A DNA stretch of 64,000 nucleotides from Desulfocapsaceae bacterium. Its GTDB lineage: Bacteria; Desulfobacterota; Desulfobulbia; Desulfobulbales; Desulfocapsaceae. A program made the position numbers and the translations under genes. How positions within the stretch are numbered: position 1 is the stretch's first letter; each line of letters starts with the position of its first letter. Location: the NCBI GenBank assembly GCA_050291935.1, contig JBNKKR010000004.1:3206-67205 (forward strand), read 5' to 3'. The notes below the pieces were generated by a model that was given only the letters and a program-made list of their open reading frames with translations, was not told where the DNA came from and made no database searches. Shown piece after piece: positions 5,829 to 45,137 of this stretch.

Positions 5829-5870
5829 ATTGAACAACTTGGTTGCTCAAAAAAAAGGAAGGTATAAGTG

Positions 5871-25433: not shown

Positions 25434-25434
<1 letters not shown>

Positions 25435-29521: not shown

Positions 29522-29582
29522 TTTGTAGTGGATCTACACGAGAGTTCTCTTTAACATTTGTTGTTGGAGAGGTCTTATCTGT

Positions 29583-29622
29583 AAGCCTTGTTGATGTAAT
29601 TTTATCGACAAGGCTTTTTTTT
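29583..29622 (+). terminator. Rho-independent terminator after glnA
   Basis: AAGCCTTGT-(16-nt loop)-ACAAGGCTT followed by a T8 run. It marks the left edge of the accessory islet. Confidence 0.8.
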
Positions 29623-29636
29623 ATGCCGGTGTTAGG

Positions 29637-30172: not shown

Positions 30173-30210
30173 ATTTTACTCTCTTCTGAGTATCTGTCAA
30201 TTTAAATCCC

Positions 30211-30310
30211 GGCAGGTTTCCAGGGCCATTTTTTGCAAGGTCCGAAAGGGACTGAAAGCAGTAGCGTGAGCAGCGATCAAGAATTATCCATGAAAACCAC
30301 ATGTGCTGCC
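30211..30310 (+). pseudogene. decayed fragment homologous to an internal segment of the downstream AAA/DUF4143 ATPase gene
   Basis: GGTTTCCAGGGCCATTTTTTGCAAGGTCCGAAAGGGACTGAAAGCAGTAGCGTGAGCAGCGATCAAGAATTATCCATGAAAACC aligns by eye, with substitutions and small indels, to 30854..30955 (GGTTTTCCGGAGCCATTTTTTGCAGGTTCAGAAAGGGACTGGAAACGTTGGCAGCGTGAGCGACAGTCAAGGGTTATCCATGAAGACC). No intact reading frame. Confidence 0.7.
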
Positions 30311-30412
30311 CCCTTATGTTTCATGTTTTACTCTGTGTTTTGTGAATTTTCTGGTTGACCTTAAAAATACAAAGGATATAATTTGATTGACCCGAAAATT
30401 CACGGAAACTCT

Positions 30413-31543
30413 ATGAAAAGATACCTTAAAGAGTCAATAAAAGAAGATCTCAAAACAAAAATGGTCTTTGTTGGTGGACCAAGACAAGTGGGGAAAACGA
30501 CTTTGTCGCTTGGTATTCTTGGGGGCGATGAGCAGCATCCCGCCTATCTTAACTGGGATTATGTTGATGATAAACGCTTGCTATTGCAGGGCGGTTTGCC
30601 ATCAGGACAAAATCTGGTGGTGTTGGATGAAATTCACAAATACAAACAGTGGAGAAATTTTGTTAAGGGGTTATATGATAAAAATAAATCCACTGTTTCG
30701 TTTTTGATAACCGGTTCTGCCAGGCTGGATTATTATCGTAAAGGCGGGGATTCTCTGCAGGGCCGCTACCACTACTATCGTTTACATCCACTTTCTCTGT
30801 ATGAGTTGAATGATTGCCCAAATGAGCATGATCTTGAGCTGCTTATGCAATTTGGAGGTTTTCCGGAGCCATTTTTTGCAGGTTCAGAAAGGGACTGGAA
30901 ACGTTGGCAGCGTGAGCGACAGTCAAGGGTTATCCATGAAGACCTTGTGTCTTTAGAGCAGGTTCGGGAGGTGAGTCAACTGGATTTACTGGCCATGCTC
31001 CTGCAAGATAGAGTTGCATCACTTTTATCAATAAATGGACTCCGGGAAGATCTGCATGCTTCCCATGAGGCCGTTAGCCGGTGGGTGCAGATTTTTGAAA
31101 ACTTGTATTACTGTTTCCGGATCAGGCCCTATGGTCCAAAAAAAATTAAAGCGCTCAAAAAAGATCGAAAATTGTATCTTTGGGATTGGTCTCTGTGTCA
31201 GGATAGAGGTGGGCGGTTTGAAAATTTAGTTGCGTCCAACTTGCTCAAGTATTGTCATTACCATGAAGATGTCTATGGTGATGCAATGGAGTTGTGCTTT
31301 TTAAGAGATAATAACCAGCGTGAAGTTGATTTTGTTGTTTTGCGTGATGGAGTCCCGCTCTTTGCTGTTGAATGCAAAGTTGGTGAAAAGACTGTGAGTA
31401 AGCATCTTGCCTATTTTGCAGGGCGTACTGATATTCCACTTTTCTATCAAGTACATATGGGAAAGGACGACTATGAAATAAAAGATTTTCGCACAAGAGT
31501 CCTGCCTTTTACACGGTTTGCTGGAGAAATTTTGAAGGTTTGA
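30413..31543 (+). CDS. AAA ATPase with C-terminal DUF4143 (PD-(D/E)xK-like) domain, paralog 1
   Basis: Walker A GGPRQVGKTT, Walker B VVLDEIH, C-terminal EVDFVVL...FAVECKVGEK nuclease-like motif. The ATG at 30413 (MKRYLKES) is preferred over the tracked TTG at 30383. Confidence 0.8.
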   Translation: MKRYLKESIKEDLKTKMVFVGGPRQVGKTTLSLGILGGDEQHPAYLNWDYVDDKRLLLQGGLPSGQNLVVLDEIHKYKQWRNFVKGLYDKNKSTVSFLITGSARLDYYRKGGDSLQGRYHYYRLHPLSLYELNDCPNEHDLELLMQFGGFPEPFFAGSERDWKRWQRERQSRVIHEDLVSLEQVREVSQLDLLAMLLQDRVASLLSINGLREDLHASHEAVSRWVQIFENLYYCFRIRPYGPKKIKALKKDRKLYLWDWSLCQDRGGRFENLVASNLLKYCHYHEDVYGDAMELCFLRDNNQREVDFVVLRDGVPLFAVECKVGEKTVSKHLAYFAGRTDIPLFYQVHMGKDDYEIKDFRTRVLPFTRFAGEILKV

Positions 31544-31673
31544 CGGTGTGCTACTGGGTGGCATTCCCCCTTCCATTGCATTCTTTCCCCACCCCATATT
31601 CGTTTTCTTTTGCTGTTGTCGCTTTGCTGTTTCTGTACTATATTGCACCTAAGACGCAAAAAAGGAGGCGTAA

Positions 31674-32840
31674 ATGGAAACTTTAGTGCGATATTTTCGG
31701 GAGCCAAAACAGAGTTTTTTTCTTTTTGGTCCCAGAGGTACCGGGAAATCGACCTGGCTAAAGCAGCACTACTCAAATGCTGTCCTGATTGATCTCTTAG
31801 CGCCAGAGGCTTTCCGGGCTTACTCTGCAAAACCGGAACGATTGCGTGAAATCGCTAAAGCGGCTGAAGGGAAGATAATAATTATTGATGAAGTTCAAAA
31901 GGTTCCTGAACTTCTGGATGTTGTCCATGAGCTTATTGAAAGTGAGGGGAAATTCCAGTTTATCTTGTCCGGCTCCAGTGCTCGTAAACTCAAAAGGACG
32001 GGTGTTGATCTATTGGCGGGCCGTGCCGTTGTGAAATCAATGCATCCATTTTTGGCCGCCGAATTGGATGATGCTTTCAGTCTTGAACAAAGTTTGCAAA
32101 CAGGTTTAGTTCCATTGGTGATAAACTCCCCTGATCCCGAGGAAACCCTTGCTTCCTATATTGCACTCTATTTAAGGGAAGAAGTGCAGATGGAGGGAGC
32201 GGTAAGAAACATAGGCGCATTTGGTCGGTTTCTGGAAGCGGTAAGTTTTTCACATGGCTCCACATTAAATGTTTCCGAAGTTGCAAGGGAGTGCCAGGTA
32301 AAACGCAAAACGGTGGATAATTACCTTGCTGTACTTGATGATCTTCTTCTTTCATTCCAGGTGCCGGTTTTTTCACGGCGCGCTAAGCGGCACCTGATTT
32401 CCCACCCCAAATTTTATTATTTTGATAGTGGAGTGTTTCGCTCTTTACGTCCCGCAGGTCCTCTGGACAGTCCTCAGGAGATTGATGGCGGTGCTCTTGA
32501 GGGGCTCGTTGCCCAGCATTTTAGAGCCTGGATCGCATATGGCAACAAGGATTGTATCCTCTATTATTGGCGGACAAAGGCTGGGGTCGAGGTTGATTTT
32601 GTCCTTTATGGAAAAGAGACTTTTTGGGCAGTCGAAGTCAAGAATACAGCAAGAGTTCACAAGAAAATGGTAAGAGGGCTAATTGCCTTTAAAGAGGATT
32701 ATCCAGAAGCACAAACGGTGTTGTTGTATCGTGGTAATGAGCATCTTGTTCTTGGTGGCGTGTTGTGTGTGCCTTGTGAATGTTTTCTTCAAGGCTTGGT
32801 TCCTGGTAAACCGATAGTCGCCGGGAAGTTTAGCCCTTAA
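31674..32840 (+). CDS. AAA ATPase with C-terminal DUF4143 (PD-(D/E)xK-like) domain, paralog 2
   Basis: Walker A GPRGTGKST, Walker B IIIDEVQ, C-terminal GVEVDFVLYG...WAVEVKNT. Strong AAGGAGG Shine-Dalgarno upstream. Confidence 0.8.
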   Translation: METLVRYFREPKQSFFLFGPRGTGKSTWLKQHYSNAVLIDLLAPEAFRAYSAKPERLREIAKAAEGKIIIIDEVQKVPELLDVVHELIESEGKFQFILSGSSARKLKRTGVDLLAGRAVVKSMHPFLAAELDDAFSLEQSLQTGLVPLVINSPDPEETLASYIALYLREEVQMEGAVRNIGAFGRFLEAVSFSHGSTLNVSEVARECQVKRKTVDNYLAVLDDLLLSFQVPVFSRRAKRHLISHPKFYYFDSGVFRSLRPAGPLDSPQEIDGGALEGLVAQHFRAWIAYGNKDCILYYWRTKAGVEVDFVLYGKETFWAVEVKNTARVHKKMVRGLIAFKEDYPEAQTVLLYRGNEHLVLGGVLCVPCECFLQGLVPGKPIVAGKFSP

Positions 32841-33124
32841 GGGTATTTTCTTGAAGTATGGAGTATATTCAGCACGGTAACAGTCTTGCTAGCTTCGTCA
32901 ATTGTGATAATAGCAATAAAAGGGAGGTGATTTATTACACATTCCCTTGTCCCCGCTACTCGTCCTTTTCTGCTTCTATTCGGAAAAATATGTAAGGATT
33001 CTGTTTCTTCTTTAATTTTTACTAACATTTTATTGGCAAACAAAATTGATACTTTATCGGCATAATATAATAGTATGTCTGTTAGATCTTGTTCTGCCAT
33101 TTGGGTCCAAATAATTTCGTACAT
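32837..33124 (-). CDS. type II toxin, RelE/ParE family
   Basis: 95 aa. MYEIIWTQMAEQDLTDILLYYADK... is typical of ParE-like toxins. Directly downstream of a Phd/YefM-type gene. Confidence 0.8.
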   Translation of the reverse strand: MYEIIWTQMAEQDLTDILLYYADKVSILFANKMLVKIKEETESLHIFPNRSRKGRVAGTRECVINHLPFIAIITIDEASKTVTVLNILHTSRKYP

Positions 33125-33127
33125 CGT

Positions 33128-33421
33128 TTATTCGTTGAGTAGTTTCGATACTCTTTTTATGACGTCATCATGTTTGGATAATGGCAAAGAAGTGTCATGC
33201 AAACTATCCAGTGATTTTTGAATCTTAGCTGTAAACCACTCATCGTATCCTTCTTCTTTTTCCAGGAACATTTCACTTATGAAAGTGTTTTTAGCATCTT
33301 CCATAGAAATCATAATACCAACAGGCCTGCTATTTTTTGTAACTATCACGGGTTCCCTTTGCATGGCATCAAGGAACGCGCCAAATCTGTTTTTTGCTTC
33401 TACTGAAGTCATTGTTTTCAT
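33128..33421 (-). CDS. type II antitoxin, Phd/YefM family
   Basis: 97 aa. TSVEAKNRFGAFLDAMQREPVIVTKNSRPVGIMISMEDA matches the Phd/YefM fold consensus. Confidence 0.8.
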   Translation of the reverse strand: MKTMTSVEAKNRFGAFLDAMQREPVIVTKNSRPVGIMISMEDAKNTFISEMFLEKEEGYDEWFTAKIQKSLDSLHDTSLPLSKHDDVIKRVSKLLNE

Positions 33422-33490
33422 TATAAGCTCCGTGTCAAAATGAAAAATTAACTATTCTAACTAAAATATCTATATTAAGCAGTATAGTTG

Positions 33491-33508
33491 TTGCTTTTGG
33501 AAAAGCAA
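33491..33508. promoter_or_regulatory. perfect palindrome upstream of the phd/parE pair (possible antitoxin operator, or hairpin after the upstream ATPase gene)
   Basis: TTGCTTTTGGAAAAGCAA, with 8-bp arms, lies 70-87 nt upstream of the antitoxin start at 33421. Confidence 0.3.
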
Positions 33509-33579
33509 ATTTTACAAACCAAAGAAATGAATTATCTGTCGCTGGAGGACAAACCGGTGAATTTCTCAGTCCTCCTCTG

Positions 33580-34842
33580 TCAGGTTTGTGTTCCACTTTT
33601 TGTCTGCCAAAGGCAGGAAATGGGAACTGCATAGAGATTGCGGCCAAATGGTACAACCGAGTCACCGTCATACAGTACTACTCCGGCTGTAAACCTTTCT
33701 TTAATGGATTCCTGGAGTTTTCGTAGCCCTTTGAAATCTTCACCGGTTACCGTTGCTGCGGCTTTCACTTCAACACCGGCCACGAGGCCTCTGGACTCCA
33801 GGACAATATCTATTTCAATTTTGTCCTTGCTGCGGAAATGACTGAAGGTTATTACATCATCGTACCAGCTTGCAAGTCTACGTAATTCTTGATAGATAAA
33901 AGTTTCCAGCAGGTGCCCGAAAAGAGCACGATCCTTCCACAGCATCTCTGCATCCAGCCCTAGTAAAGCACAGGCTAATCCGGTATCATCAAAGTGTAAT
34001 TTGGGGGTTTTGATAAGGCGTTTTAACCGGTTACTGTGCCAGGGAGGCAGCTCCTCCAGTAAGAATATCCGTGACAGCAGTGTTATATATTCACGGATAG
34101 TAGGACGGCTTATCTGGAAGGGTGCTGCAAGCTCGGTTATGTTGATCAGGCATGCCGTTTGTCCGGCAGCAAGGGTCAATAAACGCGGCAAAGTATCCAG
34201 AGCGCCGATACGTGCCAGATCTTGAATATCACGCTGAATCAACGTATCGGCATAATCCTTATACCATGTCATTTGCCGTCGTGGTGTGGCACGCGCAAGC
34301 GCTGCTGGATAACCTCCGGATGCCACTCGAACGGCGAGTTTTGCGCCCAGCCGTTTGCTCGAGTGTTCTGCCTGAAAGGAAGCGTTGAAAAGTGATGACA
34401 GGAAATTGGTATCTTCACCTGCTAGTTCTGCCTGAGATAAAGGGTGTAGCCGCAGGATTTCCATACGACCAGCCAGCGAGTCACCCAACCTGGGTACCAG
34501 CAGTACATTCGCTGAACCAGTCAAAATGAAGCGGCCAGGTTCCCGCCGCCTATCCACTTCCGCTTTTAAAGATGTGAATAACTCCGGTACCCGTTGCACT
34601 TCATCAAGGATTATCCGCTCCGGTAGATCGGCCACATATCCGACAGGATCAGCTTGAGCTGCTGCTCGCTGTACATCGTCATCAAAGGTGTAATACGTAA
34701 AATTTTCTTCTTCCCCGACCAACTGCGCCAAGGTGGTCTTCCCGCATTGTCGCGGCCCATGAATCAGTACCACAGGTGTGTCTGCCAGGGCCTCGACAAC
34801 ACGATCACGAAGATAACGAGGATATAAATTCTGGTTTGTCAT
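33580..34842 (-). CDS. AAA ATPase with C-terminal DUF4143 (PD-(D/E)xK-like) domain, paralog 3
   Basis: Walker A GPRQCGKTT, Walker B IILDEVQ, C-terminal IEIDIVLE...VAGVEVKAAAT. The ATG at 34842 (MTNQNLYPRYL) is preferred over the tracked 34863. Confidence 0.8.
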   Translation of the reverse strand: MTNQNLYPRYLRDRVVEALADTPVVLIHGPRQCGKTTLAQLVGEEENFTYYTFDDDVQRAAAQADPVGYVADLPERIILDEVQRVPELFTSLKAEVDRRREPGRFILTGSANVLLVPRLGDSLAGRMEILRLHPLSQAELAGEDTNFLSSLFNASFQAEHSSKRLGAKLAVRVASGGYPAALARATPRRQMTWYKDYADTLIQRDIQDLARIGALDTLPRLLTLAAGQTACLINITELAAPFQISRPTIREYITLLSRIFLLEELPPWHSNRLKRLIKTPKLHFDDTGLACALLGLDAEMLWKDRALFGHLLETFIYQELRRLASWYDDVITFSHFRSKDKIEIDIVLESRGLVAGVEVKAAATVTGEDFKGLRKLQESIKERFTAGVVLYDGDSVVPFGRNLYAVPISCLWQTKSGTQT

Positions 34843-34866
34843 AGCGGCTAATCGTAAAAACAAAGC

Positions 34867-34923
34867 CGACTAATTGCAAGATTTATCCCGACCAATTGAA
34901 AGTTTTTTGGCGACTAATTGAAA
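34867..34923. repeat. three 13-nt direct repeats, CGAC(T/C)AATTG(C/A)AA, at an exact 22-bp period
   Basis: Copies start at 34867 (CGACTAATTGCAA), 34889 (CGACCAATTGAAA) and 34911 (CGACTAATTGAAA). Each contains the palindromic core CAATTG. They lie 25-80 nt upstream of the paralog-3 ATPase start. Confidence 0.85.
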
Positions 34924-34938
34924 ACTTAAAGAGTGGCG

Positions 34939-34956
34939 TTCTTTAGGTTCTTTAGG
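34939..34956. repeat. tandem 9-mer TTCTTTAGG x2
   Basis: TTCTTTAGGTTCTTTAGG read directly, in the same intergenic region as the 22-bp periodic repeats. Confidence 0.8.
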
Positions 34957-35000
34957 TAGATAAATTAACAAATATTGGCTATGATATTCCTAAAAAAGGT

Positions 35001-35214
35001 ATGTTTTGCCCCAAGAAGTGCTGTTTTGACGATTGCTTTTCATATCAAGCAACTACAGCAAGAGATACAATGGACCCAAGCCGAATGAGCTGGGAAGATG
35101 GGGGCAAGCAAAAACAGATATCAGCTTATGCGCGGGGGGAATGCTCCATCAACAGATGTTTTGATCAAACTGTCTGGAGTATTTGATGTTACGCTTAATC
35201 ATCTTGCATTTTGA
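35001..35214 (+). pseudogene. frameshifted XRE-family helix-turn-helix gene remnant
   Basis: The tracked ORF ends ...KQISAYARGECSINRCF*. Shifting +1 at the G-run GCGCGGGGGGAA continues as NAPSTDVLIKLSGVFDVTLNHLAF*. Joined, this gives the typical HTH_XRE pattern ISxYERGxxxPSxDxLxKLxxxFxVxxxxL. Confidence 0.6.
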
Positions 35215-35238
35215 CCTACTTTTAGGAGTTGTAACGAC

Positions 35239-35448
35239 ATGACAAATATATTCACAGCAGTTGTTCATAAGGAAGAAAATCTCTATGTAGCCGAATGTTC
35301 TGAGGTAGGCACTGCAAGCCAGGGAGAGACTATTGAAGAAGCGGTGAGTAACCTAAAAGAAGCAACTGAACTTTACCTTGAAGAATTTCCCATCAAGCAG
35401 ACCTTTAGACCTTTTTTGACTACGTTTGAGGTCGCGGCCCATGCCTGA
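35239..35448 (+). CDS. hicB: type II antitoxin, HicB family (UPF0150 small form)
   Basis: 69 aa. FTAVVHKEENLYVAECSEVGTASQGETIEEAVSNLKEATELYLEE is the HicB/UPF0150 fold signature. Confidence 0.75.
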   Translation: MTNIFTAVVHKEENLYVAECSEVGTASQGETIEEAVSNLKEATELYLEEFPIKQTFRPFLTTFEVAAHA

Positions 35449-35500
35449 AATCCCGCGAATATCTGGCGAGGAGGCTAATAGCAGGCATTATAGTTGTTAA
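35441..35500 (+). pseudogene. hicA: truncated hicA (YcfA-like toxin) remnant
   Basis: An ATG overlapping the hicB stop (ATGCCTGA) opens MPEIPRISGEEANSRHYSC*. The first 12 residues match the HicA N-terminus (MPxLPxxSGxE), then the frame diverges and stops after 19 codons. Confidence 0.55.
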
Positions 35501-35642
35501 TTTTGTAAAAAATAATAACAATTCTTGAAATAGTTGTTTTGACTATTTACAGATCGTATAAAGTGTGATACTAGTGCAACAAATGGCGTTTGTCTTTTTG
35601 AAGACAGACGGTTTGTTAGGGCAAAATAATTGGGGTGTGAAA

Positions 35643-36365
35643 ATGAAAAAGAGATATATTTTGGCTCTCTGTTCCGCAGCGCTGTGCTTTGCGATAACAG
35701 GGATGGCACAGGCTGCTACGGTTAGTACCACTGAGATCACAGGAACAGTTGAGGAAATCGATTCTATTTCCAGCTATTCGACATCAGGTATAACCATGGC
35801 GGGAATGGAGGTAACCGTAACGTTTTCAGATTTTACGACGGAGACCATTTCCTGGGGAAGTAGTGGGTATGGTTCTGGTGCTGAGGGAACCGGCTGGTCT
35901 TTGACTATGTCTGATCCAAGTACAACCACCTATTTTGATGCATACTGGGATTTTGATGTGACTGATTCTAGTAAGTCTGTTTTGAGCATCGCTTTGGATG
36001 GTTTTGCTAATAATGTTGTTTTTGACGATGATGTTACGGGGGTAGGTAGTGTTGGTTCTGGATATGGTAATTCGCTTACGATTGATGCCTACACTGCACC
36101 TGATACTACATACGATGGATTGATCAATGTGTCGTATATTGGTGGAGTGCAAATAGCTGGACAGGCGTTGGTTGGTGATTTATATCAAAGCATGTTGATT
36201 GAATTTGCTGGAGATGCTTTCACTGCTGCTGATGAGTTTTACTTCTTGCAAGATACGGACAATATGGCAAATCCGATTCCTGAACCTGCTACGGTGCTAC
36301 TTTTGGGCCTAGGCGTTGCTGGATTGGCTGGAGGTCGTTTACGACGGAAGGGAGTGAAGAAGTAA
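35643..36365 (+). CDS. PEP-CTERM sorting-domain secreted protein
   Basis: Signal peptide MKKRYILALCSAALCFAITGMAQA. Ser/Thr/Gly/Asp-rich body. C-terminal IPEPATVLLLGLGVAGLAGGRLRRKG (PEP motif, TM, Arg-rich tail). The ATG at 35643 is preferred over the tracked start at 35565. Confidence 0.9.
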   Translation: MKKRYILALCSAALCFAITGMAQAATVSTTEITGTVEEIDSISSYSTSGITMAGMEVTVTFSDFTTETISWGSSGYGSGAEGTGWSLTMSDPSTTTYFDAYWDFDVTDSSKSVLSIALDGFANNVVFDDDVTGVGSVGSGYGNSLTIDAYTAPDTTYDGLINVSYIGGVQIAGQALVGDLYQSMLIEFAGDAFTAADEFYFLQDTDNMANPIPEPATVLLLGLGVAGLAGGRLRRKGVKK

Positions 36366-36394
36366 TTTTTTTCTCCAATAACATTGAGTGTTTG

Positions 36395-36431
36395 AAAAAG
36401 CTGATGTCCATGTTGACATCAGCTTTTTTTG
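36395..36431 (+). terminator. Rho-independent terminator after the PEP-CTERM gene
   Basis: AGCTGATGTC-CATGTT-GACATCAGCT followed by T7 and preceded by an A-run, so it could act in both directions. Confidence 0.85.
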
Positions 36432-36482
36432 TTTACAGTACACTTTTTCTCCAGTATTGAGTCATATTGTTAATGGCGTGAC

Positions 36483-37385
36483 CTATGCGCTTACAAGTAG
36501 TTCAAGGCTGCTAATAATCCTTGGTATCGCATCCGTCGTTTGCGGGCTACATATTTTATGGATTTGCACTTGCTGTAGAAGAAGGGAACAGCAATCGAGC
36601 AGCGTGGTGTATTCTTCTTTAGATAGCGCAGTATGGTATTTTGCAAAGTATTGATTGCTAAGAAGGTGAAACAATTTTTCCGATTCAGTTAGTTGCTGAA
36701 TAGTTACAGTGTTTCCTCGTTCCAAGATTACAATATTGCATAAGGGAGAGTTGTGTTGTGCTAGTTGGTTACTTTGAATGTTAACAGCATGCTTGGGAAG
36801 TATTGGAGAAATAAGAGGGAATTTCTCCAGATTTAGCCCTATGGCTCGCATGGCATCGTACCACAATTTTATTCTTGGAATACCTAATGGAATAATTGGT
36901 TTTCCCTCTGGAACGATTGAGACTGCCGTTACATCGTCAGTTAAAAATTTATGTCCTTTGGTAACTAACGCAGCGGTAATTGTAGATTTTCCAAACCCCT
37001 TGTCTCCAACAAGCATTACCCCCTTATTCATGATGGTTACAGAACTAGCGTGAAAGACACTAAACCCCATCTGTTTAAGCAAGGTAGCCATAACAATGGC
37101 ATAAAGTGGCTGTAGTATCAGGTTGGAGAACTCAACGGAAAGAGAGTGCGGTGTGATAACGATTTTGTTGGCATCCTCTATGTTATATGACGCCACCTCT
37201 GGCCAGCAAATAACAAGTCCATCGCCATTGTCTGAAACCACAACCTTTTCGTCAACGACGGGTGGAGAAGGAAAATACGCGCTTTCGGAGACTGATACCT
37301 CATACTCCCCTGAATGTGCTACATTGAATCCGGGGAGTGCTCGATATGACCGGATACCAAATCCATAAGCTTCACAAAAAAACAC
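36483..37385 (-). CDS. HPr kinase/phosphorylase-like kinase (HprK C-terminal domain family), lasso-cluster associated
   Basis: 300 aa. P-loop GVMLVGDKGFGKSTITAALVTKGHKFLTDDV resembles the HprK catalytic core. Immediately downstream of the precursor gene. GTG start without a clear Shine-Dalgarno, so the start is uncertain. Confidence 0.75.
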   Translation of the reverse strand: MFFCEAYGFGIRSYRALPGFNVAHSGEYEVSVSESAYFPSPPVVDEKVVVSDNGDGLVICWPEVASYNIEDANKIVITPHSLSVEFSNLILQPLYAIVMATLLKQMGFSVFHASSVTIMNKGVMLVGDKGFGKSTITAALVTKGHKFLTDDVTAVSIVPEGKPIIPLGIPRIKLWYDAMRAIGLNLEKFPLISPILPKHAVNIQSNQLAQHNSPLCNIVILERGNTVTIQQLTESEKLFHLLSNQYFAKYHTALSKEEYTTLLDCCSLLLQQVQIHKICSPQTTDAIPRIISSLELLVSA

Positions 37386-37414
37386 TGTGATCTGAACGAA
37401 TAAGACTCTCGCAG

Positions 37415-37450
37415 AATGCTAGACCAAAGTGCAAATGGTCAGCTAGCATT
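37415..37450 (-). promoter_or_regulatory. stem-loop 4 nt downstream of the precursor stop codon (possible attenuator or mRNA stabiliser)
   Basis: AATGCTA/TAGCATT outer stem plus GACCA/TGGTC inner stem with a small bulge. No U-tract follows on the minus-strand transcript, so it is not a classical terminator. Confidence 0.45.
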
Positions 37451-37454
37451 TTTG

Positions 37455-37640
37455 TCAACTGCAACCTATAGTACCTAAACCAGGTATCGAGCAATCACTT
37501 GGACCGCTGTTAGCTTCTCCTTTTGTTAGCTCTGATGCCTTTCCTAGCCTAGCTACTGTGGGCGCTTCATATATTGGTTTTTTTGCCATTTTTCCTGAGT
37601 TACAAGAAATTTCAGGTTTGTTTGATCGCCGATAATGCAT
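37455..37640 (-). CDS. lasso peptide precursor (A peptide)
   Basis: MHYRRSNKPEISCNSGK-MAKKPIYEAPTVARLGKASELTK|GEANSGPSDCSIPGLGTIGCS. The leader fits YxxPx(L/V)x3Gx5Tx-G exactly (Y-17, P-14, V-12, T-2). The core starts with Gly1 and has Asp9 as the only acidic residue at positions 7-9. Two possible starts exist: ATG 37640 (GGGGG 5 nt upstream, 2 nt after the cyclase stop) or ATG 37589 (AGGA 3 nt upstream). Confidence 0.85.
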   Translation of the reverse strand: MHYRRSNKPEISCNSGKMAKKPIYEAPTVARLGKASELTKGEANSGPSDCSIPGLGTIGCS

Positions 37641-37642
37641 AA

Positions 37643-39535
37643 TTACCCCCTTACTTTTCTATTCCAAACATCCAAAGATACAATTTTTAACAGAATTCTA
37701 ATGTCAACGAAGCTGAAGCGAGTAGATTCCCGAAAAAATGAGTCGCATGCTTGCTGGGAAAATTTCCTATTTACATAATCATACGTTTCCTTGGATATGT
37801 TGTCAATGCTAAACTGTAACCATTCCTTTGCGGCTGTTGAAAATACGTGATTTATATTAGCATCGAAATACGTTTTTGATTTTCGCTTAGAGATTTTTTC
37901 AGGAAAGATTGACCGTAAAGCATTCCGTAGAATATTTCTATTGTAACCCTTATGCCTCTTATGCTGAGTCGGTAGGGCTAAGCAAAATTCTATGAGTCGT
38001 TTATCGAAGAAGGGATATCTGCCTATTAAATTCTGCCTTTTATTTTGTCGTTCAAATAATTCAAGATGAAGAGGGCGTAATGGTTGCTTGACTAAAAGGT
38101 GATGATGAATTTTTTCTGTTTGAGCAGGGTGATAGCGAGTATGAAAGAAAGAAAGTAATCGTTCCCGCATATCACTATTCTGTAAAAATGAGGGATTTAG
38201 TATATCCGTCATTTTTTGAATATCTTTTTTATGATAAAAAGAAGGAAATAATTGGCCATAGTCATAGCTTATCCGTTGCCGAGCAATATATGCAAATAAT
38301 TTCAACGCCTTTTTTAGGCTTTGTGTATTACCAGTGGCGTAGCATTCTTGTAACAGGCGTAGCCATCTGCCACGAATAAATAAATCATTATACAAACCTT
38401 CACCATGGGAAACTGCAGAATCCCCATCATGTCCATCCAGAATAACACGGATACCTTTTTTTTCTGCAATTCCCATAAGATTCCATACCATAAAGAAATG
38501 AGGTGCAAAGAATGGCTCGTCTTCTGTGTTGGCGACTTGTTCAAAAGCTTTACCCGGGTGAATTGTATCCGCTTCGATAAAGTTTGGCGAAATGTTATAT
38601 CTTGCAAGTGTGCTGTTAAAAAAATGACGCTCATCGCATTCTGTTACTGTATTAAAAATTCCAGAGAAGGAATGCAATGTCCCGGGATAGCAGTTTTGCA
38701 AAGGACCTGCTGCCATACAGACAATGGAAGACGAGTCAAGACCGCCACTAAGGTAGGAGCCTATTGGAAAGGCTGTGCGCAACCTGCAGCGGACGGATTC
38801 TTTAAAAATGGAGTAAAAAGCTTCTCTATATTCACTATCTTTTTTACAGAAGAGTGTCGTTGCATGGGGCTCCCAGAATTTTTCGATAAGGCTATTGTCT
38901 CTGGTAATTTTGAAATAATGGCCCGGAGGAAGACGAAATAGAGTCGTATAAAAGGTGCTTTCTTCATCAGTAACTTCACATGTAAGAAACTCGGCTATCC
39001 TGGTGGTATTGATTATGGAGGTGTCTTTAAGGGGAAGACAACGAATCCCTTTTATCTCAGAAGCAAAAACAAAAATATCATCGGAAAGATAATAGTAGAA
39101 GGGCATAACGCCCATATGATCCCTCGCACAAAAGAGAGATTGGGCAGCAGCATCCCAAATAACAAAGGCAAAATCACCTAGAAGATGATATACGCAATCA
39201 TGGCCCCATTTTTCGTAAGCCGCAAGGATAAGTTCGCTATCCGTTGTTTGGGAAAGGGGTTTTGACCATCCAACTGAATCTCGTAATTCTTCCCGGTTAT
39301 CTATTCGCCCCTGCCAGGTAATGGTTCGCCTGGATCTCTGATTTTGGGCAGGGAGTTTTTCAAAAAGAGATTCCGGGGTGTCATGAAGAGCACAATGCAA
39401 TAGGCCGATATTGGAATCAGAAAAATAATTGATACCGTCCGGCCCCCGATGGGCCAAGGCTGTCCCCATTGCTTGTAACTGAGTTGGTTCAACAGGTGCG
39501 CCGTTGCGATGGAAGATTCCGCCTATTCCACTCAT
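37643..39535 (-). CDS. lasso peptide isopeptide bond-forming cyclase (asparagine synthetase B homolog)
   Basis: 630 aa. The N-terminus MSGIGGIF lacks the Cys2 glutaminase nucleophile of true AsnB. PP-loop SYLSGGLDSSSIV is retained. Flanked by a PqqD-like gene and the precursor. Confidence 0.85.
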   Translation of the reverse strand: MSGIGGIFHRNGAPVEPTQLQAMGTALAHRGPDGINYFSDSNIGLLHCALHDTPESLFEKLPAQNQRSRRTITWQGRIDNREELRDSVGWSKPLSQTTDSELILAAYEKWGHDCVYHLLGDFAFVIWDAAAQSLFCARDHMGVMPFYYYLSDDIFVFASEIKGIRCLPLKDTSIINTTRIAEFLTCEVTDEESTFYTTLFRLPPGHYFKITRDNSLIEKFWEPHATTLFCKKDSEYREAFYSIFKESVRCRLRTAFPIGSYLSGGLDSSSIVCMAAGPLQNCYPGTLHSFSGIFNTVTECDERHFFNSTLARYNISPNFIEADTIHPGKAFEQVANTEDEPFFAPHFFMVWNLMGIAEKKGIRVILDGHDGDSAVSHGEGLYNDLFIRGRWLRLLQECYATGNTQSLKKALKLFAYIARQRISYDYGQLFPSFYHKKDIQKMTDILNPSFLQNSDMRERLLSFFHTRYHPAQTEKIHHHLLVKQPLRPLHLELFERQNKRQNLIGRYPFFDKRLIEFCLALPTQHKRHKGYNRNILRNALRSIFPEKISKRKSKTYFDANINHVFSTAAKEWLQFSIDNISKETYDYVNRKFSQQACDSFFRESTRFSFVDIRILLKIVSLDVWNRKVRG

Positions 39536-39846
39536 TGTGCTTGAATAGTAATAAATTCTTTATCCGCAAGTTGTTGTAAAAAGCTAAGGATATCCGGAGT
39601 ACATTCTTCATCTGTTGTATCAAATCTATCAGTTACCTTTGTGATAAGTTGAGCTAATGTAACGTCCTCTTGCAAAAGTTCCCAAATAAGTGAAGCAACT
39701 GGGTTCAATTGACTGTATACTCCGTCAACCATATCAAGAATGATGGTTTCCATATCAATCTGCGTGGACAATTTGTCGTCTTTCCTGCAGAAGGTGGCTT
39801 GGGAGAGTTTGGCATTTTTGGGGGAAAAGAACGTTGCGTAATCCAT
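39532..39846 (-). CDS. PqqD-family RiPP recognition element protein (lasso B1)
   Basis: 104 aa. ...ILDMVDGVYSQLNPVASLIWELLQEDVTLAQLITKVTDRFDTTDEECTPDILSFLQQLADKEFI matches PqqD-like winged-helix proteins. 4-nt overlap with the cyclase gene. Confidence 0.8.
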   Translation of the reverse strand: MDYATFFSPKNAKLSQATFCRKDDKLSTQIDMETIILDMVDGVYSQLNPVASLIWELLQEDVTLAQLITKVTDRFDTTDEECTPDILSFLQQLADKEFITIQAQ

Positions 39847-39882
39847 AACGTTTTTGCTCGTTTTTTTTGTATTTTTGTAGTG

Positions 39883-40713
39883 CTAAAAGTGAAGAAGAGA
39901 CCCTTCTCGTTTTGCAATTCGTATCCCTTGGTATATTGATACTATACCAATACCTAGTGATATTATCGAGAGAATTAAAAGGATAGATAACTGTATGCGT
40001 ACCCCCATAAGATCCGAACCATTGAGGAGAATTTGCCGGAGCGCTTCCAGTCCGTGGGTTATGGGAAAGAAAACAGAAAAAGGTTTGATCCATTGGGGTA
40101 GAACGCTTACCGGATACATAACGCCGCCCAACAGTCCTGATATTGTGGTCATCAGGATTCCTATTGGATTTCCCTGCTTAAAGACAATAATAAAAGATGC
40201 CGAGAGCAGGCCAAGGCCAAAAAAAGGCAAAAGAGTAAGGGTGAAAGCAACCAGGAGTGCTCCAATATTTACAGGATGGATCTGCATATCAAAGAGAAAA
40301 ATACCCACTACAAAATAGCTAATGGTTCTAAAACTGGTTGAAAAGAGTTTGTACACATAGGAAGAAAGCAAAATCGTAATGATAGAAGTGGGAGTGACTA
40401 GCAGTGATTCCAGGGTGCCGAGGACTTGTGAAGACCTGATCTCATTGGCAAAGGTGTTGGTGGAAATGGTGAAATAATCCGCCAGTGCGATACCTATTAA
40501 TACAAAGGAAAAGTAATCTCCGCCGTAAGGCTCAAGCTGCGCTATTTCGTTGCCAGCAAAGAGTTTTGCAAGAAGGAAAAAGGAAAACGTAGTGAGAATA
40601 ATACCAAATCCTTGGGTGACATAGTGCAGGCGATAGCTTGTCGCAGTTTTAAAATCACGAATGAAAAAGGCCGCGGGTTTTGCCACTATTTGCTGCACTT
40701 TTATACTGTTCAT
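39883..40713 (-). CDS. ABC-2 type transporter permease
   Basis: 276 aa with six predicted TM segments. 4-nt overlap with the upstream ABC ATPase gene. Confidence 0.8.
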   Translation of the reverse strand: MNSIKVQQIVAKPAAFFIRDFKTATSYRLHYVTQGFGIILTTFSFFLLAKLFAGNEIAQLEPYGGDYFSFVLIGIALADYFTISTNTFANEIRSSQVLGTLESLLVTPTSIITILLSSYVYKLFSTSFRTISYFVVGIFLFDMQIHPVNIGALLVAFTLTLLPFFGLGLLSASFIIVFKQGNPIGILMTTISGLLGGVMYPVSVLPQWIKPFSVFFPITHGLEALRQILLNGSDLMGVRIQLSILLILSIISLGIGIVSIYQGIRIAKREGSLLHF

Positions 40714-41504
40714 TGTGGGGATAGGGAGGAAGATGGATGTGGTGCAGTGATGAGGTCTATAAAACTTTGCTCAATGGAGCTGCAGTCGGCAATACCTTGA
40801 AAGGTGCCATTATACAAAAGATTTCCTCCATTGAGGATGGTTACAGAATCACATATTTCTTCCGCTTCATGTAAGTTATGGGTGCACCAAATAACAGTTC
40901 TCTGCTTCTTTTTTACCAGAGTTTCCTTTGTGAACTTGAGCAGTTTTTTACAGGCGATAGGGTCAAGGCTGGTAGTTGCCTCATCCATAAGTAAAATTTC
41001 AGGATTTGCCAGTAATGCCCTTGCAATGGCTAAGCGTTGCTTTTGACCTGCGGAATAGGACATAAATTTAAACTCTGCTTTTTCCTCCATATCGGTGAGT
41101 TGTAGTACATCATGAATGCGTTCTTTTTGTAACTTACCGGAAATATTATAAAGGGTTGCAAAAAAAGAGAGATTCTCTCGTCCACTAAGACGCCAATAGA
41201 ATGTCCGATCGTTGGTGTTGACCATGCCTATTTTTGATTTTATGGCCATTGCTTGTGAGTGAAGACAGAGTCCGGCAATGCTCCCTGTTCCCTCATCTGG
41301 GGTGACTAATGTGGAGAGAATTTTTATCAAGGTTGTTTTGCCAGCACCATTGGGCCCCAGTAAACCCATTATCTCCCCTTGATGGACAGTGAGTGAAACA
41401 TGGCTGAGGGCAATTGTTTTTCTGGGGGGGCGAAAGAAGAAGGTTTTCCAATTTCGTTCGGTAAAGCTTTTGGAAATATTGTTTAGGGTTATGATTGGAA
41501 CCAT
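40710..41504 (-). CDS. ABC transporter ATP-binding protein
   Basis: Walker A GPNGAGKTT, signature YSAGQKQRL, Walker B ILLMDEATTSLD. Confidence 0.9.
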   Translation of the reverse strand: MVPIITLNNISKSFTERNWKTFFFRPPRKTIALSHVSLTVHQGEIMGLLGPNGAGKTTLIKILSTLVTPDEGTGSIAGLCLHSQAMAIKSKIGMVNTNDRTFYWRLSGRENLSFFATLYNISGKLQKERIHDVLQLTDMEEKAEFKFMSYSAGQKQRLAIARALLANPEILLMDEATTSLDPIACKKLLKFTKETLVKKKQRTVIWCTHNLHEAEEICDSVTILNGGNLLYNGTFQGIADCSSIEQSFIDLITAPHPSSSLSPQ

Positions 41505-41552
41505 TTACTCTTTGAAGACCAATGAAGGAGCAGAGCTTTTATCGCGCGTGCG

Positions 41553-42158
41553 TTACTTGAAAATGATGCCACGCTCTCGAAGCTCATATATGATATCATT
41601 TACACAGTCTCGTAAAAGACGACTCCCGGTGTCCAGCTCAATATCAGGATTTTCAGGTGCTTCATAGGGGGAAGATATTCCGGTATAATTTTTTATTTTT
41701 CCCTCTCTTGCCTTTTTGTACAATCCTTTCACATCGCGTTGTTCGCAAATTTCTAAAGGGCAATTGCAGTACACTTCAAGTATATTTTCCGGGCCTATAA
41801 TGTTCTTAACCCTTTCCCGGTCAACTTTCAGCGGAGAAATAAAAGCGGTGAGAGAAATAACACCACAATCAAGGAATAAGCCAACCATCTCTGCTATTCT
41901 TCTCATATTTTCGCTACGGTCTTCCATGGAAAAGCCAAGATCACCGCAAAGGCCGTGGCGCACATTATCCCCGTCAAATACATAGGTTCGGCATCCCATC
42001 AAGTGCAGACGTTGTTCAACGGCATGGGCAAGGGTTGATTTTCCTGATCCTGAAAGGCCGGTGAACCAGAGATTAATACTCAGATGTCCATTTTGGGTTT
42101 CACGTCTTGGCCTGGTGACAGCCGCTTGCTGTCTGATAACATTGGGTGATGTAGCCAT
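41553..42158 (-). CDS. cysC: adenylyl-sulfate (APS) kinase
   Basis: 201 aa. WFTGLSGSGKSTLA P-loop, FDGDNVRHGL, and ISPLKVDRE motifs. Confidence 0.9.
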   Translation of the reverse strand: MATSPNVIRQQAAVTRPRRETQNGHLSINLWFTGLSGSGKSTLAHAVEQRLHLMGCRTYVFDGDNVRHGLCGDLGFSMEDRSENMRRIAEMVGLFLDCGVISLTAFISPLKVDRERVKNIIGPENILEVYCNCPLEICEQRDVKGLYKKAREGKIKNYTGISSPYEAPENPDIELDTGSRLLRDCVNDIIYELRERGIIFK

Positions 42159-42159
42159 G

Positions 42160-43026
42160 TTAACAGAGAAGCTCTTTAAGGTAGGGAAGCAGGGTATCTT
42201 TTATCTCTGGATGCTCTAAAGCGAAAGCAAGGTTAGCCATTTGAAATCCTGCCTTATCGCCACAGTCAAATCGGGTTCCTGAAAAACGATAGCCGAAAAT
42301 CGGTTGTTCTGTGAGCAGTTGGGACATTGCATCGGTGAGTTGTATCTCCCCACCTGCTCCGGTTGCTTGTCCTCCCAGTATTTCAAAAATACGTGGAGTA
42401 AGAATATAACGACCAATGACCGCCAAGTTTGATGGCGCCTTATCGGAAGGTGGCTTTTCAATCATACCACGAATGCGGAACGTTTCATCACATGGAGTAT
42501 CCGCATCAAGAATGCCATATCGTGAAGTTTCTTCCTGAGGTACCTCAATTGCAGCAACGGTTGAAGCTCGAATTCTATCGAATTCCTGTATCATCTGATA
42601 AAGAACCGGAATATCACTTTTTATCAGATCATCAGCAAGGAGTACGGCAAAAGGTTCGTCACCAACGATATCTCTTGCGCACCAGATTGCATGGCCTAAT
42701 CCAAGGGGTTCACTTTGTCTTGTGTATATTATTGTCCCTGATTTGGGGACCAATGATTCAATCTCTTTAAGGAGTTCAAATTTTTCGCGTTGTCTGAGAG
42801 TTTCTTCTAATTGGAAAGACCTGTCAAAGTGGTTTTCCAAGGCACTTTTTCCTCCTCCAGTAACAAAAATAAGGTGCTCTATTCCAGATGCAAGTGCTTC
42901 TTCAACGGCATATTGAATAAGTGGCTTGTCCACCACTGGTAACATCTCTTTGGGCATGGCTTTGGTGGCTGGAAGAAATCTCGTTCCAAGCCCTGCCACA
43001 GGAAAAATCGCTTTTTTAATTTTCAT
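42160..43026 (-). CDS. galU: UTP--glucose-1-phosphate uridylyltransferase
   Basis: KKAIFPVAGLGTRFLPATKAMPKEMLPVVDKPLIQY is the canonical GalU N-terminus. Confidence 0.95.
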   Translation of the reverse strand: MKIKKAIFPVAGLGTRFLPATKAMPKEMLPVVDKPLIQYAVEEALASGIEHLIFVTGGGKSALENHFDRSFQLEETLRQREKFELLKEIESLVPKSGTIIYTRQSEPLGLGHAIWCARDIVGDEPFAVLLADDLIKSDIPVLYQMIQEFDRIRASTVAAIEVPQEETSRYGILDADTPCDETFRIRGMIEKPPSDKAPSNLAVIGRYILTPRIFEILGGQATGAGGEIQLTDAMSQLLTEQPIFGYRFSGTRFDCGDKAGFQMANLAFALEHPEIKDTLLPYLKELLC

Positions 43027-43247
43027 GGGAACTCTTTGGTTGATGAATCACGTTTTGAAGACGTTTCAGGTTGTTTCAAAAAGCATTACAGCTCCATGAT
43101 AGTGAAAATTGGATAAACAATCCACCATAAAATATTTTGAATGCTAAAGGGAGCGATCAAAAAAATACCTTGCACCTTTTTGGCAACTTACGGTTTAATT
43201 ACGTGAGACCGTATACTCTTTTTCTCCTTTTTTCAGGAAAGCAAACT

Positions 43248-43922
43248 ATGAAATATATGTTTACCATTTTTGGTCTTGTTCTTATGACCAGTCTCTTGAC
43301 CTTGTATTACTTGTGGCCTGATAGTGGTGGTGCAAGTAAACCGAGCACTGAGCAAAATGGACAGGAATCGCCTGCAAGTTACCATCTTATTGGCCAGAAA
43401 GCTCGGGAGGCAGCGAGCTTGAACAGACAAATTCTTGTTCAAGAGGCACAACGGATTGGAATTGATAAAGAAGAGAGTTTTAGAAAATCATTGAAGGAAT
43501 ATTATGAACAATCGTTGGTGAGAGTGTTGATGGATAGAAAGCTTGCTGAGACTAGTGTTACTGTAAGCGAAGAAGATATTGACAGCTATCTTGGGAAGTT
43601 TGGTTCTATTTTTACCTTTACCCGTTTTCCAGTGATAAACGGAAAAATTCAGCAGGAGAGTGGAAATCAAAGCACTGTTCTTTTTGATGAGCTTTCTTCC
43701 ACATTACAACTTTTATTGGCCGGACTTGAACTGGGGGAAAGTGCAAGTCAATACGAGACAGGGACTGAAATCAGTGTAATTCGTTTAGATGCAGTTCGTC
43801 CATCTTCGGTGGTTGTGGCTACTGATCTTGATAGAAATCAAATACGTGAGCAGCTTGCAAATTACAAAAGGAGTCAACAGATCGATCTTTGGATTCATAT
43901 GTTGCGAGAAAGCAGTCATTAA
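43248..43922 (+). CDS. SurA N-terminal-domain-like chaperone protein (no rotamase domain), membrane-anchored
   Basis: Start MKYMFTIFGLVLMTSLLTLYYLW (signal/anchor) with AGGA upstream. ...NRQILVQEAQRIGIDKEESFRKSLKEYYEQSLVRVLMDRKL... resembles the SurA_N/EpsD-like N-domain. Weak call. Confidence 0.45.
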   Translation: MKYMFTIFGLVLMTSLLTLYYLWPDSGGASKPSTEQNGQESPASYHLIGQKAREAASLNRQILVQEAQRIGIDKEESFRKSLKEYYEQSLVRVLMDRKLAETSVTVSEEDIDSYLGKFGSIFTFTRFPVINGKIQQESGNQSTVLFDELSSTLQLLLAGLELGESASQYETGTEISVIRLDAVRPSSVVVATDLDRNQIREQLANYKRSQQIDLWIHMLRESSH

Positions 43923-43999
43923 TATGTTTGGTGGTTGTGGCCGTGGAGTGAAAGTGTAATACGGTAAAGAGGAATCAGTAGAGGACGGGAAAAAGAGAA

Positions 44000-44605
44000 A
44001 TGGCAGAGAAAGGGTATAAACGTAAAAACTATTTTATCAAAAAGAATTTTCAAGGAAAATTAATCCTTGGCTATTTTCTGTTTTTGGTTGTTGGTTGCCT
44101 GCTCTTTATTCTGGCACTGTCATTTTTGGCAGCAGATAGTATGACGGTGACCTATAGCAATAACAATTTGCAAATTGGCCAGACCCCTTTGATGTTGTTT
44201 AAGGAGTTAGTTACAGCAAATTGGATTGTTATAGTTGTTGGTGCGGCTTTGGTCGTTGCCATTGCCACACGAATAACCCATCGTATGGCAGGGCCCATGT
44301 TTAATCTGGAGCGCTCACTTGATGCTATGATTGATGGCAAACTCAACAAGACAATCTATTTACGAAAAAAAGATGAAGGAAAGGAATTGGCCGCAAAAAT
44401 CAATCAATTTAATGCGGAACTAAGCACTGATATAAAAAGTATAAAGAAACGTTCAAAAAATATTGAGGAGTTATTGTCAAGCTGGGCTGTTCAAGATCCA
44501 ACAAAGAGAAGGCAGGACGACCTGGACTCGATTCATGCATCAATTGCAAAACAGAATGGTATTATTGGTGAAATAGTTAGCAGGTACAAGTTGCTAGATG
44601 ATTAA
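44000..44605 (+). CDS. two-TM membrane protein with a HAMP-like linker and coiled-coil tail (function unknown)
   Basis: 201 aa. KRKNYFIKKNFQGK, then TM1, a short loop and TM2, then RITHRMAGPMFNLERSLDAMIDGKL (HAMP-like). 8-nt overlap with the next gene. Confidence 0.5.
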   Translation: MAEKGYKRKNYFIKKNFQGKLILGYFLFLVVGCLLFILALSFLAADSMTVTYSNNNLQIGQTPLMLFKELVTANWIVIVVGAALVVAIATRITHRMAGPMFNLERSLDAMIDGKLNKTIYLRKKDEGKELAAKINQFNAELSTDIKSIKKRSKNIEELLSSWAVQDPTKRRQDDLDSIHASIAKQNGIIGEIVSRYKLLDD

Positions 44606-45137
44606 ATATTTGTTGACAGTGTTCTTCTTGTTGCTCTCATGCGTTTTGTTCGGCGTTACGGAAACTGCCCAGGCACAGGAGCAAAAGAGCAAATATGTAA
44701 CGCTGTGGTATTCAAATAGGGAGGTGTTACAGGAGTTTAATGATAATTTGCAACTTAATCGAAAGCTACATTATGCCATGCGTAAAAATGTGGTTACGGT
44801 GGCAGATGAGGTGTTGGCAAAACTTGATATTATCGTAGAAAAAGTCCAAATTGTCCTTGATATGTTTCCTGAATATTATCATGTTCGGGTGGCAGTTCTA
44901 CCAGATAACGACGATGTGGCACGAATCTATAAAAAGCGATATGGAAAACGGGTAAATCATATCGCCTACTATTCCCTTTCTGAAAAAACCATTTATATTT
45001 CAGCAGATGATACAAGACTTCGGGTTGTGGCCCATGAAGTTGGGCACTCCGTGGTCGATCACTATTTTAAAGTGCGTCCGCCTTATAACATTCACGAGTT
45101 GATGGCCCAGTTCGCCGAAAAGCATGTAACGGATTAG
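44598..45137 (+). CDS. secreted small protein with an HExxH zinc-metallopeptidase motif (function unknown)
   Basis: Signal peptide MIKYLLTVFFLLLSCVLFGVTETAQA. VAHEVGHSVVDHYFKVRPPYNIHELMAQFAE gives HExxH plus a downstream Glu (gluzincin-like arrangement). Confidence 0.5.
   Translation: MIKYLLTVFFLLLSCVLFGVTETAQAQEQKSKYVTLWYSNREVLQEFNDNLQLNRKLHYAMRKNVVTVADEVLAKLDIIVEKVQIVLDMFPEYYHVRVAVLPDNDDVARIYKKRYGKRVNHIAYYSLSEKTIYISADDTRLRVVAHEVGHSVVDHYFKVRPPYNIHELMAQFAEKHVTD

Follow-up and report, generated by a model that had tools for sequence, protein, structure and literature searches.

A kinase-associated lasso peptide operon without a neighbouring B2 leader peptidase gene in a Desulfocapsaceae bacterium

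The lasso operon and the search for B2

A stretch of 64,000 nt from a Desulfocapsaceae bacterium (assembly GCA_050291935.1, contig JBNKKR010000004.1, positions 3,206 to 67,205), referred to below as the window, contains a lasso peptide operon in which no gene for the leader peptidase B2 was found. B2 is treated as an essential lasso maturation enzyme, and genome-mining rules generally expect its gene beside those of the recognition protein B1 and the cyclase C. The operon is a string of eight genes on the minus strand (36483-43026), in which neighbouring genes are closely spaced or overlap, with gaps of -4 to 69 nt. Gene identities were assigned from Pfam and NCBIfam scans of the open reading frames (ORFs) of the window. 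The genes are listed below in the order of the string, together with the junction between B1 and C.

42160..43026, minus strand: GalU, UTP-glucose-1-phosphate uridylyltransferase, 288 aa (TIGR01099 galU, 364 bits against a cutoff of 327)
41553..42158, minus strand: adenylyl-sulfate (APS) kinase (Pfam APS_kinase, E = 6e-64; NF003013, 279 bits)
40710..41504, minus strand: ATP-binding cassette (ABC) transporter ATPase, DrrA-like (Pfam ABC_tran, E = 1.6e-30)
39883..40713, minus strand: ABC-2 type permease, DrrB-like (Pfam ABC2_membrane, E = 2.3e-13)
39532..39846, minus strand: B1, a stand-alone PqqD-like recognition element for peptides that are ribosomally made and modified post-translationally (RiPPs), 104 aa (Pfam PqqD, 60.8 bits against a cutoff of 23.4)
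39532..39535, minus strand: overlap of the B1 stop with the cyclase start, ATGA (PqqD-to-C gap of -4 nt)
37643..39535, minus strand: lasso cyclase C, an asparagine-synthetase-like macrolactam synthetase, 630 aa (NF033535, 614.4 bits against a cutoff of 525)
37455..37640, minus strand: precursor A, 61 aa (NF033521 lasso leader, 21.4 bits against a cutoff of 19)
36483..37385, minus strand: HprK-like kinase, 300 aa (Pfam Hpr_kinase_C, 37.2 bits against a cutoff of 33.3)

The first-pass annotation had described the PqqD gene as a stand-alone ORF of 104 aa and the 630-aa cyclase as free of any extra domain. Both descriptions were confirmed. The Pfam domains of the cyclase were GATase_7 and Asn_synthase only, and the stop codon of the PqqD gene overlaps the ATG of the cyclase gene, thus leaving no space for B2 between B1 and C. 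Over its full length, B1 could be aligned with its counterparts in related loci; on the lasso-specific NCBIfam model lasso_PqqD_Bac (NF033536) it scored 55.2 bits, under the cutoff of 80. The SGGxDS ATP-binding motif of the cyclase was invariant in an alignment of 31 sequences. An assignment of the cyclase as an XrtA/PEP-CTERM amidotransferase was rejected despite the PEP-CTERM neighbourhood of the operon, the score on TIGR03108 being 204.5 bits against a cutoff of 816.9.

The leader of precursor A ends in ...PIYEAPTVARLGKASELTK and is followed by the core GEANSGPSDCSIPGLGTIGCS (core codons 37458-37520), which begins GEANSGPSD... and ends ...GCS. The predicted cut lies between Lys(-1) and Gly(+1), and the predicted ring is formed by Gly1 and Asp9. 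The precursor has two cysteines, both in the tail, which is a class IV-like pattern, and its C-terminal residue is Ser. Both marks of the paeninodin type were therefore present, namely an HprK-like kinase gene in the cluster and the C-terminal Ser. The kinase gene directly follows A in ten of ten related loci, and its product probably acts on a Ser of the precursor, as in the paeninodin type.

GalU is encoded by the first gene of the string, 1 nt from the next, and occupies the matching position in B2-less and B2-containing relatives alike; a role of GalU in peptide tailoring is unproven. The ABC ATPase and permease genes share 4 nt, and the ATPase is probably a subunit of the exporter. No peptidase domain was found in the permease by Pfam. 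The best sigma-70-like match within the operon (37778-37806, minus strand; TTGACA, 17 nt, TATGAT, 11/12) falls within the cyclase gene at its 3′ end, some 140 nt upstream of the precursor ORF, and may be a dedicated precursor promoter. The total count of promoter-like sites in the operon was no higher than in shuffled controls.

The direct search for B2 was made on the 64-kb window only, which is part of a contig of 130,745 bp. When the window ORFs of at least 110 aa were scanned with Pfam and NCBIfam, no Transglut_core3 or peptidase domain was detected, save one weak DJ-1/PfpI match. This match (7481-8143), the sole peptidase-family match of the window, was rejected as a candidate, since it corresponds to ElbB glyoxalase. 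When the window was searched by tblastn with the B2 proteins of relatives, E values exceeded 1 throughout. A hidden Markov model (HMM) of the family B2, built from six and later from twelve B2 proteins, was run with --max on stop-to-stop fragments of at least 25 aa in six frames. The best match in the window had E = 4.4, compared with 1e-67 to 1e-71 for the positive-control loci, and no B2 was found by the HMM in the part of the window that extends up to 27 kb upstream and up to 20 kb downstream of the operon. Comparison of the B2 profile by hhalign with the kinase and with the ORFs at 43137-43922, 44598-45137 and 52198-52632 gave probabilities below 1%.

Fusion of B2 to another gene of the cluster was considered as well. 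No B2 was fused to the cyclase or to B1, both of which are as long as in B2-containing relatives. Fusion of B2 to a nucleotidyltransferase has been reported in some Firmicutes clusters (PMC8498205). Such a fusion was rejected for the window: GalU is plain, with 288 aa, and no B2 region is present in the NTP_transf_5 protein at 55728-56909. The earlier statement that no B2 lies in or near the cluster, or elsewhere in the 64-kb window, holds by Pfam, NCBIfam, tblastn, the six-frame HMM and hhalign.

Related loci with and without B2

Homologs of the cyclase with 40-54% identity were numerous, and ten neighbourhoods were obtained; L002 is from GCA_054039555.1, L092 from GCA_053992375.1, L003 and L091 from JGI bins and L006 from Dissulfuribacter thermophilus. 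Six relatives (L090, L087, L088, L089, L004/L005 and L006) carry a PF13471 (Transglut_core3) B2 of 147-150 aa between PqqD and C, and the B2 gene overlaps both of these genes. L088, L089 and L090 are fully syntenic with the window. They share with it the order of three small divergent genes, GalU, APS kinase, ABC, ABC-2, PqqD, C, A, HprK, PEP-CTERM, GlnA, GlnD, P-II and Amt. L087, L004/L005 and L006 are more distant; L006 shares just the core order ABC-ABC-2 ... PqqD-B2-C-A-HprK, with a different wider context. The cyclases of L088, L089, L090 and L006 are 44-53% identical to that of the window, and those of L090 and L002 are 60% identical to each other.

The other four loci (L002, L092, L091 and L003) have no B2. 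Their PqqD-C spacers measure 78, 75, 35 and 167 nt, respectively, and that of the window -4 nt, whereas the distance is 426-450 nt in B2-containing loci. No B2 remnants above shuffled controls were detected in the PqqD-C spacers of the B2-less loci, and the HMM found no B2 elsewhere in the four relative loci, of which L002 and L091 were covered for about 10 kb on each side. Whether B2-less arrangements recur among homologs of this cyclase had been raised in the first-pass annotation; at least four more loci have such an arrangement, and the remaining genes are under purifying selection. The window is therefore a member of a canonical lasso family that lost B2 alone, by clean deletion.

Broader scans were also carried out. 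A metagenome scan returned mostly non-lasso loci with 24-39% identity, drawn by generic asparagine-synthase motifs, with B2 in 5 of 80. The lone match of a genome-contig scan was a Parcubacteria locus with 27% identity.

A second gene also differed between the two kinds of locus. A helix-hairpin-helix (ComEA-like) gene of 83-84 aa lies between the APS kinase and ABC ATPase genes in the syntenic relatives L088, L089 and L090 and is absent from all B2-less loci, so that two genes separate the two states.

6970-7221 in L088, 6297-6548 in L089 and 6942-7196 in L090: helix-hairpin-helix gene; the equivalent place in the window (about 41505-41552) is empty

In neighbour-joining (NJ) trees, the B2-containing L090 was sister to the B2-less L002/L092, with a bootstrap of 97% for C and 96% for HprK, and the window, L091 and L003 lay outside this group in both trees. 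Because a B2-containing locus nests within the B2-less set, the trees suggest at least two independent losses of B2, or a loss followed by regain through recombination; an exact count is not claimed. The number of losses was not resolved by the trees of GlnD and the left-flank genes. L002 and L092 have the same junction of 75-78 nt, indicating that their loss of B2 is older than their split.

The genes that remain show signs of constraint after this shared loss. The ratio of nonsynonymous to synonymous substitution rates (dN/dS) between L002 and L092 was 0.17 for PqqD, 0.15 for C, 0.26 for A and 0.18 for HprK, with dS of 0.6-1.2. The divergence of C relative to GlnD was about 2.2 for B2-less pairs and about 3.8 for B2-containing pairs. 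As far as the contigs reach, none of the eight genes is disrupted in any of the five B2-less assemblies. Substitutions specific to B2-less loci were confined to one column in C, one in HprK and none in PqqD, which is within the range of random partitions. By these measures the cluster is under purifying selection after the loss, without a neighbouring B2.

Divergence is 2-5 times faster in the lasso genes (36483-43026) than in the housekeeping genes that flank them, with cyclase identity at about 50% where that of GlnD (25434-27995 in the window) is 65-88% and that of GalU 85-93%. The lasso gene trees also disagree with that of GlnD. These features hint at diversifying selection, or at recombination inside the locus.

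The precursors of the two kinds of locus were compared at the cleavage site. Y-17, P-14, G-8, T-2 and D9 were invariant over 11 homologous precursors, and Y-17, P-14, G-8, T-2, Gly1 and Asp9 are kept in all precursors of B2-less loci. Every core, in the window and in the relatives, has Asp9 and a cysteine near the C-terminus. The cleavage site reads ...LTK/G in all five B2-less loci, window included. Precursors P0244 and P0246 also read ...LTK/G; they group with the L002 precursor by sequence, and the B2 status of their loci is unchecked. In the seven precursors of B2-containing loci the site reads Q/G, Q/A, L/A, R/A, C/S, K/A and L/G, so that the Lys-Gly pair occurs in none of them (0/7). The same contrast is seen between sisters, with Q/G in L090, which has B2, and K/G in L002/L092, which lack it. 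In this small sample of related lineages, the pattern suggests that the leader-cutting enzyme of B2-less loci would be stricter at -1/+1 than the family's own B2. T(-2) has been described as a recognition element in the enzymatic processing of lasso precursors (PMC10368454). Work on the Bsf pathway indicates an influence of the penultimate residue on B1- and kinase-dependent steps as well (PMC10368454), so an invariant T(-2) is no proof of a B2-type enzyme.

Source of the leader-cutting activity

Candidates for a replacement protease were sought close to the operon. All-against-all comparison of ORFs revealed no gene specific to B2-less loci; for every conserved gene of the window close to the operon, homologs were present in B2-less and B2-containing loci alike. 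One neighbouring gene had already been dismissed in the first-pass annotation for its signal peptide.

44598..45137, plus strand: secreted HExxH protein, 179 aa, with an N-terminal Sec signal sequence MIKYLLTVFFLLLSCVLFGVTETAQA/Q, read from sequence

This protein had no Pfam match and no PDB match by sequence. Homologs were found at the same location in the B2-less L002 and L091 and in the B2-containing L088, L089 and L090. It was rejected as the replacement leader protease on account of its signal peptide, its occurrence in B2-containing loci and an hhalign probability of 0.1% to the B2 profile. The dismissal was right, and the presence of the protein in B2-containing relatives outweighs the signal-peptide argument. 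Two explanations that had been put forward for the missing B2 fared less well. Recruitment of a different protease nearby is unsupported for the neighbourhood, which holds no B2-less-specific gene. That the pathway is not a canonical lasso pathway is likewise unsupported: the cyclase passes NF033535, the leader is canonical, the core has the Gly1...Asp9 arrangement, and relatives carry B2 in the expected slot.

The most likely reading is that the leader protease is supplied in trans. In its specific form, which we favour tentatively and hold at somewhat less than even confidence, the locus would be a functional kinase-associated split-B lasso operon whose leader peptidase is an unlinked B2-type enzyme encoded outside the 64-kb window. 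The ancestor would have been a canonical A-B1-B2-C cluster, from which only the B2 gene was lost by clean deletion. B1 would still bind the precursor via the Y-17/P-14/G-8 leader motif, and the kinase would probably phosphorylate the C-terminal Ser. We infer that cleavage still occurs; the precursor would be cut between Lys(-1) and Gly(+1), after which the cyclase would close the Gly1-Asp9 macrolactam. The cutter would most probably be a B2-type (transglutaminase-like Cys-His-Asp) peptidase with its gene at another site in the genome, for instance one from a second lasso cluster. A redundant copy of this kind would explain the repeated loss of the neighbouring one.

Several observations weigh against an unlinked B2. 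None was seen in trans, the direct search having been that of the window. When 5.8 billion proteins were searched with a B2 profile, the 120 best matches included none assigned to the contigs of the window, L002, L003, L091 or L092. This is weak negative evidence: two of the six known B2 proteins, those of L087 and L089, are missing from these 120 as well, and a B2 of a distant family would rank below them. The search did give B2 matches for some twenty other cyclase-bearing contigs. Moreover, overlapping ORFs normally couple the translation of the family B2 to that of B1 and C, and an unlinked copy would be unusual. Lys(-1)Gly(+1), invariant in the B2-less precursors and absent as a pair from the B2-containing ones, points to a cutter with a specificity other than that of the family B2. 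The conservation of T(-2) is perhaps due to requirements of B1 or the kinase and not of B2 (PMC10368454).

An alternative is that the leader is removed independently of B2. An unrelated protease, possibly a housekeeping cytoplasmic one, would cut after Lys, and the precursors would have become fixed on Lys(-1)/Gly(+1). LTK/G in every B2-less precursor and the lack of any Lys-Gly pair among the seven B2-containing ones argue for such an enzyme, as do the persistence of this pattern on both sides of the split between L090 and L002+L092 (96-97% bootstrap) and the recurrent and stable nature of the loss. Among the 120 best matches, no family-type B2 was assigned to the long contigs that bear B2-less clusters, and PMC8960859 offers a general precedent for RiPP proteases encoded outside the cluster of their own pathway. 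However, no candidate protease was found in the window and none specific to B2-less loci, T(-2) is still invariant, and C, HprK and PqqD have no B2-less-specific substitutions beyond chance. With a small sample of related lineages, the Lys-Gly pattern could also be partly inherited. We regard this explanation as rather unlikely, though one to be taken seriously. Another alternative is that the leader is not removed before cyclisation, Asp9 being joined to the side-chain amine of Lys(-1) in a branched lariat, or that another product is made, such as a phosphorylated linear peptide. Lys(-1) is invariant in B2-less precursors only, and B1 could have been retained for the second role that has been reported for it, stimulation of the kinase (PMC10368454). 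Such chemistry is without precedent, leaves the invariance of Gly(+1) and T(-2) unexplained and is matched by no B2-less-specific change in the cyclase; it is scarcely probable. Taken together, it is doubtful, if well within reach, that the clade matures its lasso peptide without any B2-type peptidase, by a non-homologous Lys(-1)/Gly(+1) protease or, less likely, by a cyclase that uses the Lys(-1) amine.

Two simpler explanations were also considered. The cluster could be an ordinary split one, with B2 on the same contig just outside the window, as the window covers 64,000 of the 130,745 bp of the contig. However, the stretches of 27 kb upstream and 20 kb downstream that the window does cover hold no B2, and the same is true of about 10 kb to each side in L002 and in L091. 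The contig of the window was also assigned none of the 120 best B2 matches, and since there are no relatives at least 90% identical to the lasso proteins of the window, a B2 of this contig should be a separate entry. A split cluster is thus very unlikely. It could also be supposed that the operon is a decaying or silent remnant, given that canonical pathways are considered to depend on B2 (PMC13352647); without it no lasso peptide would be made and the cluster would be on its way out. This is just as improbable. Five independent assemblies carry all eight genes in intact form; in L002 and L092, dN/dS has been 0.15-0.26 since their shared loss; the lasso genes have not sped up relative to GlnD; and both the C ATP-binding motif and the precursor motifs are conserved, so that decay is unlikely.

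The locus is thus a leader-dependent, B1-containing lasso operon from which B2 has been lost, apparently more than once, yet on which purifying selection persists. If B2 is indeed supplied in trans, the family would provide a case of an unlinked lasso leader peptidase, and mining pipelines would be discarding real clusters. If these genomes have no B2, leader removal would be able to pass to an unrelated protease, a mechanistic novelty that engineering could put to use. It would then be possible to replace the B2 step in a pathway that keeps B1 and a full-length cyclase. B2-containing sister clusters such as L090 are natural controls.

Wider neighbourhood and comparison with known systems

The operon is flanked by a gene for a putative exosortase substrate and, further away, by an insertion and an exopolysaccharide (EPS) locus. 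The additional features are as follows.

2525-7259, plus strand: rnpA-yidC-jag-mnmE string
30383-31543, 31674-32840 and 33580-34863: three AAA_14/DUF4143 ATPase genes in the insertion
32837-33421: ParE/Phd toxin-antitoxin pair in the insertion
35239-35448: HicB-like gene in the insertion
35565..36365, plus strand: PEP-CTERM sorting-signal protein (TIGR02595 PEP_CTERM, 22.3 bits against a cutoff of 16)
43137-45137, plus strand: three small genes without a Pfam family
55728-56909, minus strand: NTP_transf_5 (PF14907) nucleotidyltransferase, 13 kb from the operon within the EPS locus

A PEP-CTERM gene of about 240 aa, convergent to the kinase gene, was present in the window and in nine of ten relatives (L002, L003, L004/L005 and L087-L092). 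The exception was L006, where the 240-aa neighbour has no Pfam match. The gene is kept even where the rest of the neighbourhood differs, as in L087 and L004. This arrangement suggests a functional link between the lasso family and an exosortase substrate; membership of the PEP-CTERM protein in the pathway is only putative. Between glnA and the PEP-CTERM gene, the window carries an insertion of about 6 kb (29522-35564), where relatives have about 0.2-0.5 kb.

The three small genes at 43137-45137 are divergent from galU and conserved in all syntenic relatives. They encode a membrane-anchored protein of 261 aa, a 201-aa protein with weak HAMP-like matches and the secreted 179-aa HExxH protein described above. 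In L006, L088 and L089, a member of the NTP_transf_5 family adjoins the lasso genes. For some kinase-type lasso clusters, nucleotidyltransferases have been reported to have a tailoring role. The rnpA-yidC-jag-mnmE string places the window in the part of the chromosome that usually lies close to the origin.

Among known lasso systems, triculamin was the only one found to be described without B2 in the open-access literature. Its clusters resemble the window in having no B2 leader peptidase gene (PMC12070363). However, they also lack B1, their precursor is leaderless and has a follower peptide, and their cyclase is N-terminally truncated (PMC12070363), whereas the window has B1, a canonical leader and a full-length cyclase of 630 aa with an N-terminal GATase-like domain. 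A maturation protease encoded away from the cluster is a feature of some lanthipeptide clusters (PMC8960859). Lanthipeptides are a different RiPP class, in which the protease acts after the class-defining modification, whereas in lasso pathways it must act before cyclisation. In the open-access literature searched, no report of a B1-containing, B2-less lasso cluster was found, and no unlinked leader peptidase was reported for a B1-containing, leader-dependent one.

The closest resemblance is to the kinase-associated split-B lasso clusters, which include those of paeninodin (Paenibacillus dendritiformis), the polyphosphorylated lasso peptide of Sphingobium yanoikuyae and Bsf of Bradymonas sediminis (PMC8498205, PMC10368454). 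Like these, the window has A, a stand-alone PqqD-like B1, an asparagine-synthetase-like C and an HprK-like kinase, with a YxxPxL...T(-2) leader, a core that ends in or beside Ser and a transporter alongside. Unlike them, it has no B2 gene, its exporter is a two-gene ABC-2 system (DrrAB-like) and not a fused McjD-like ABC transporter, and its operon begins with galU and an APS kinase gene inside an EPS / PEP-CTERM locus.

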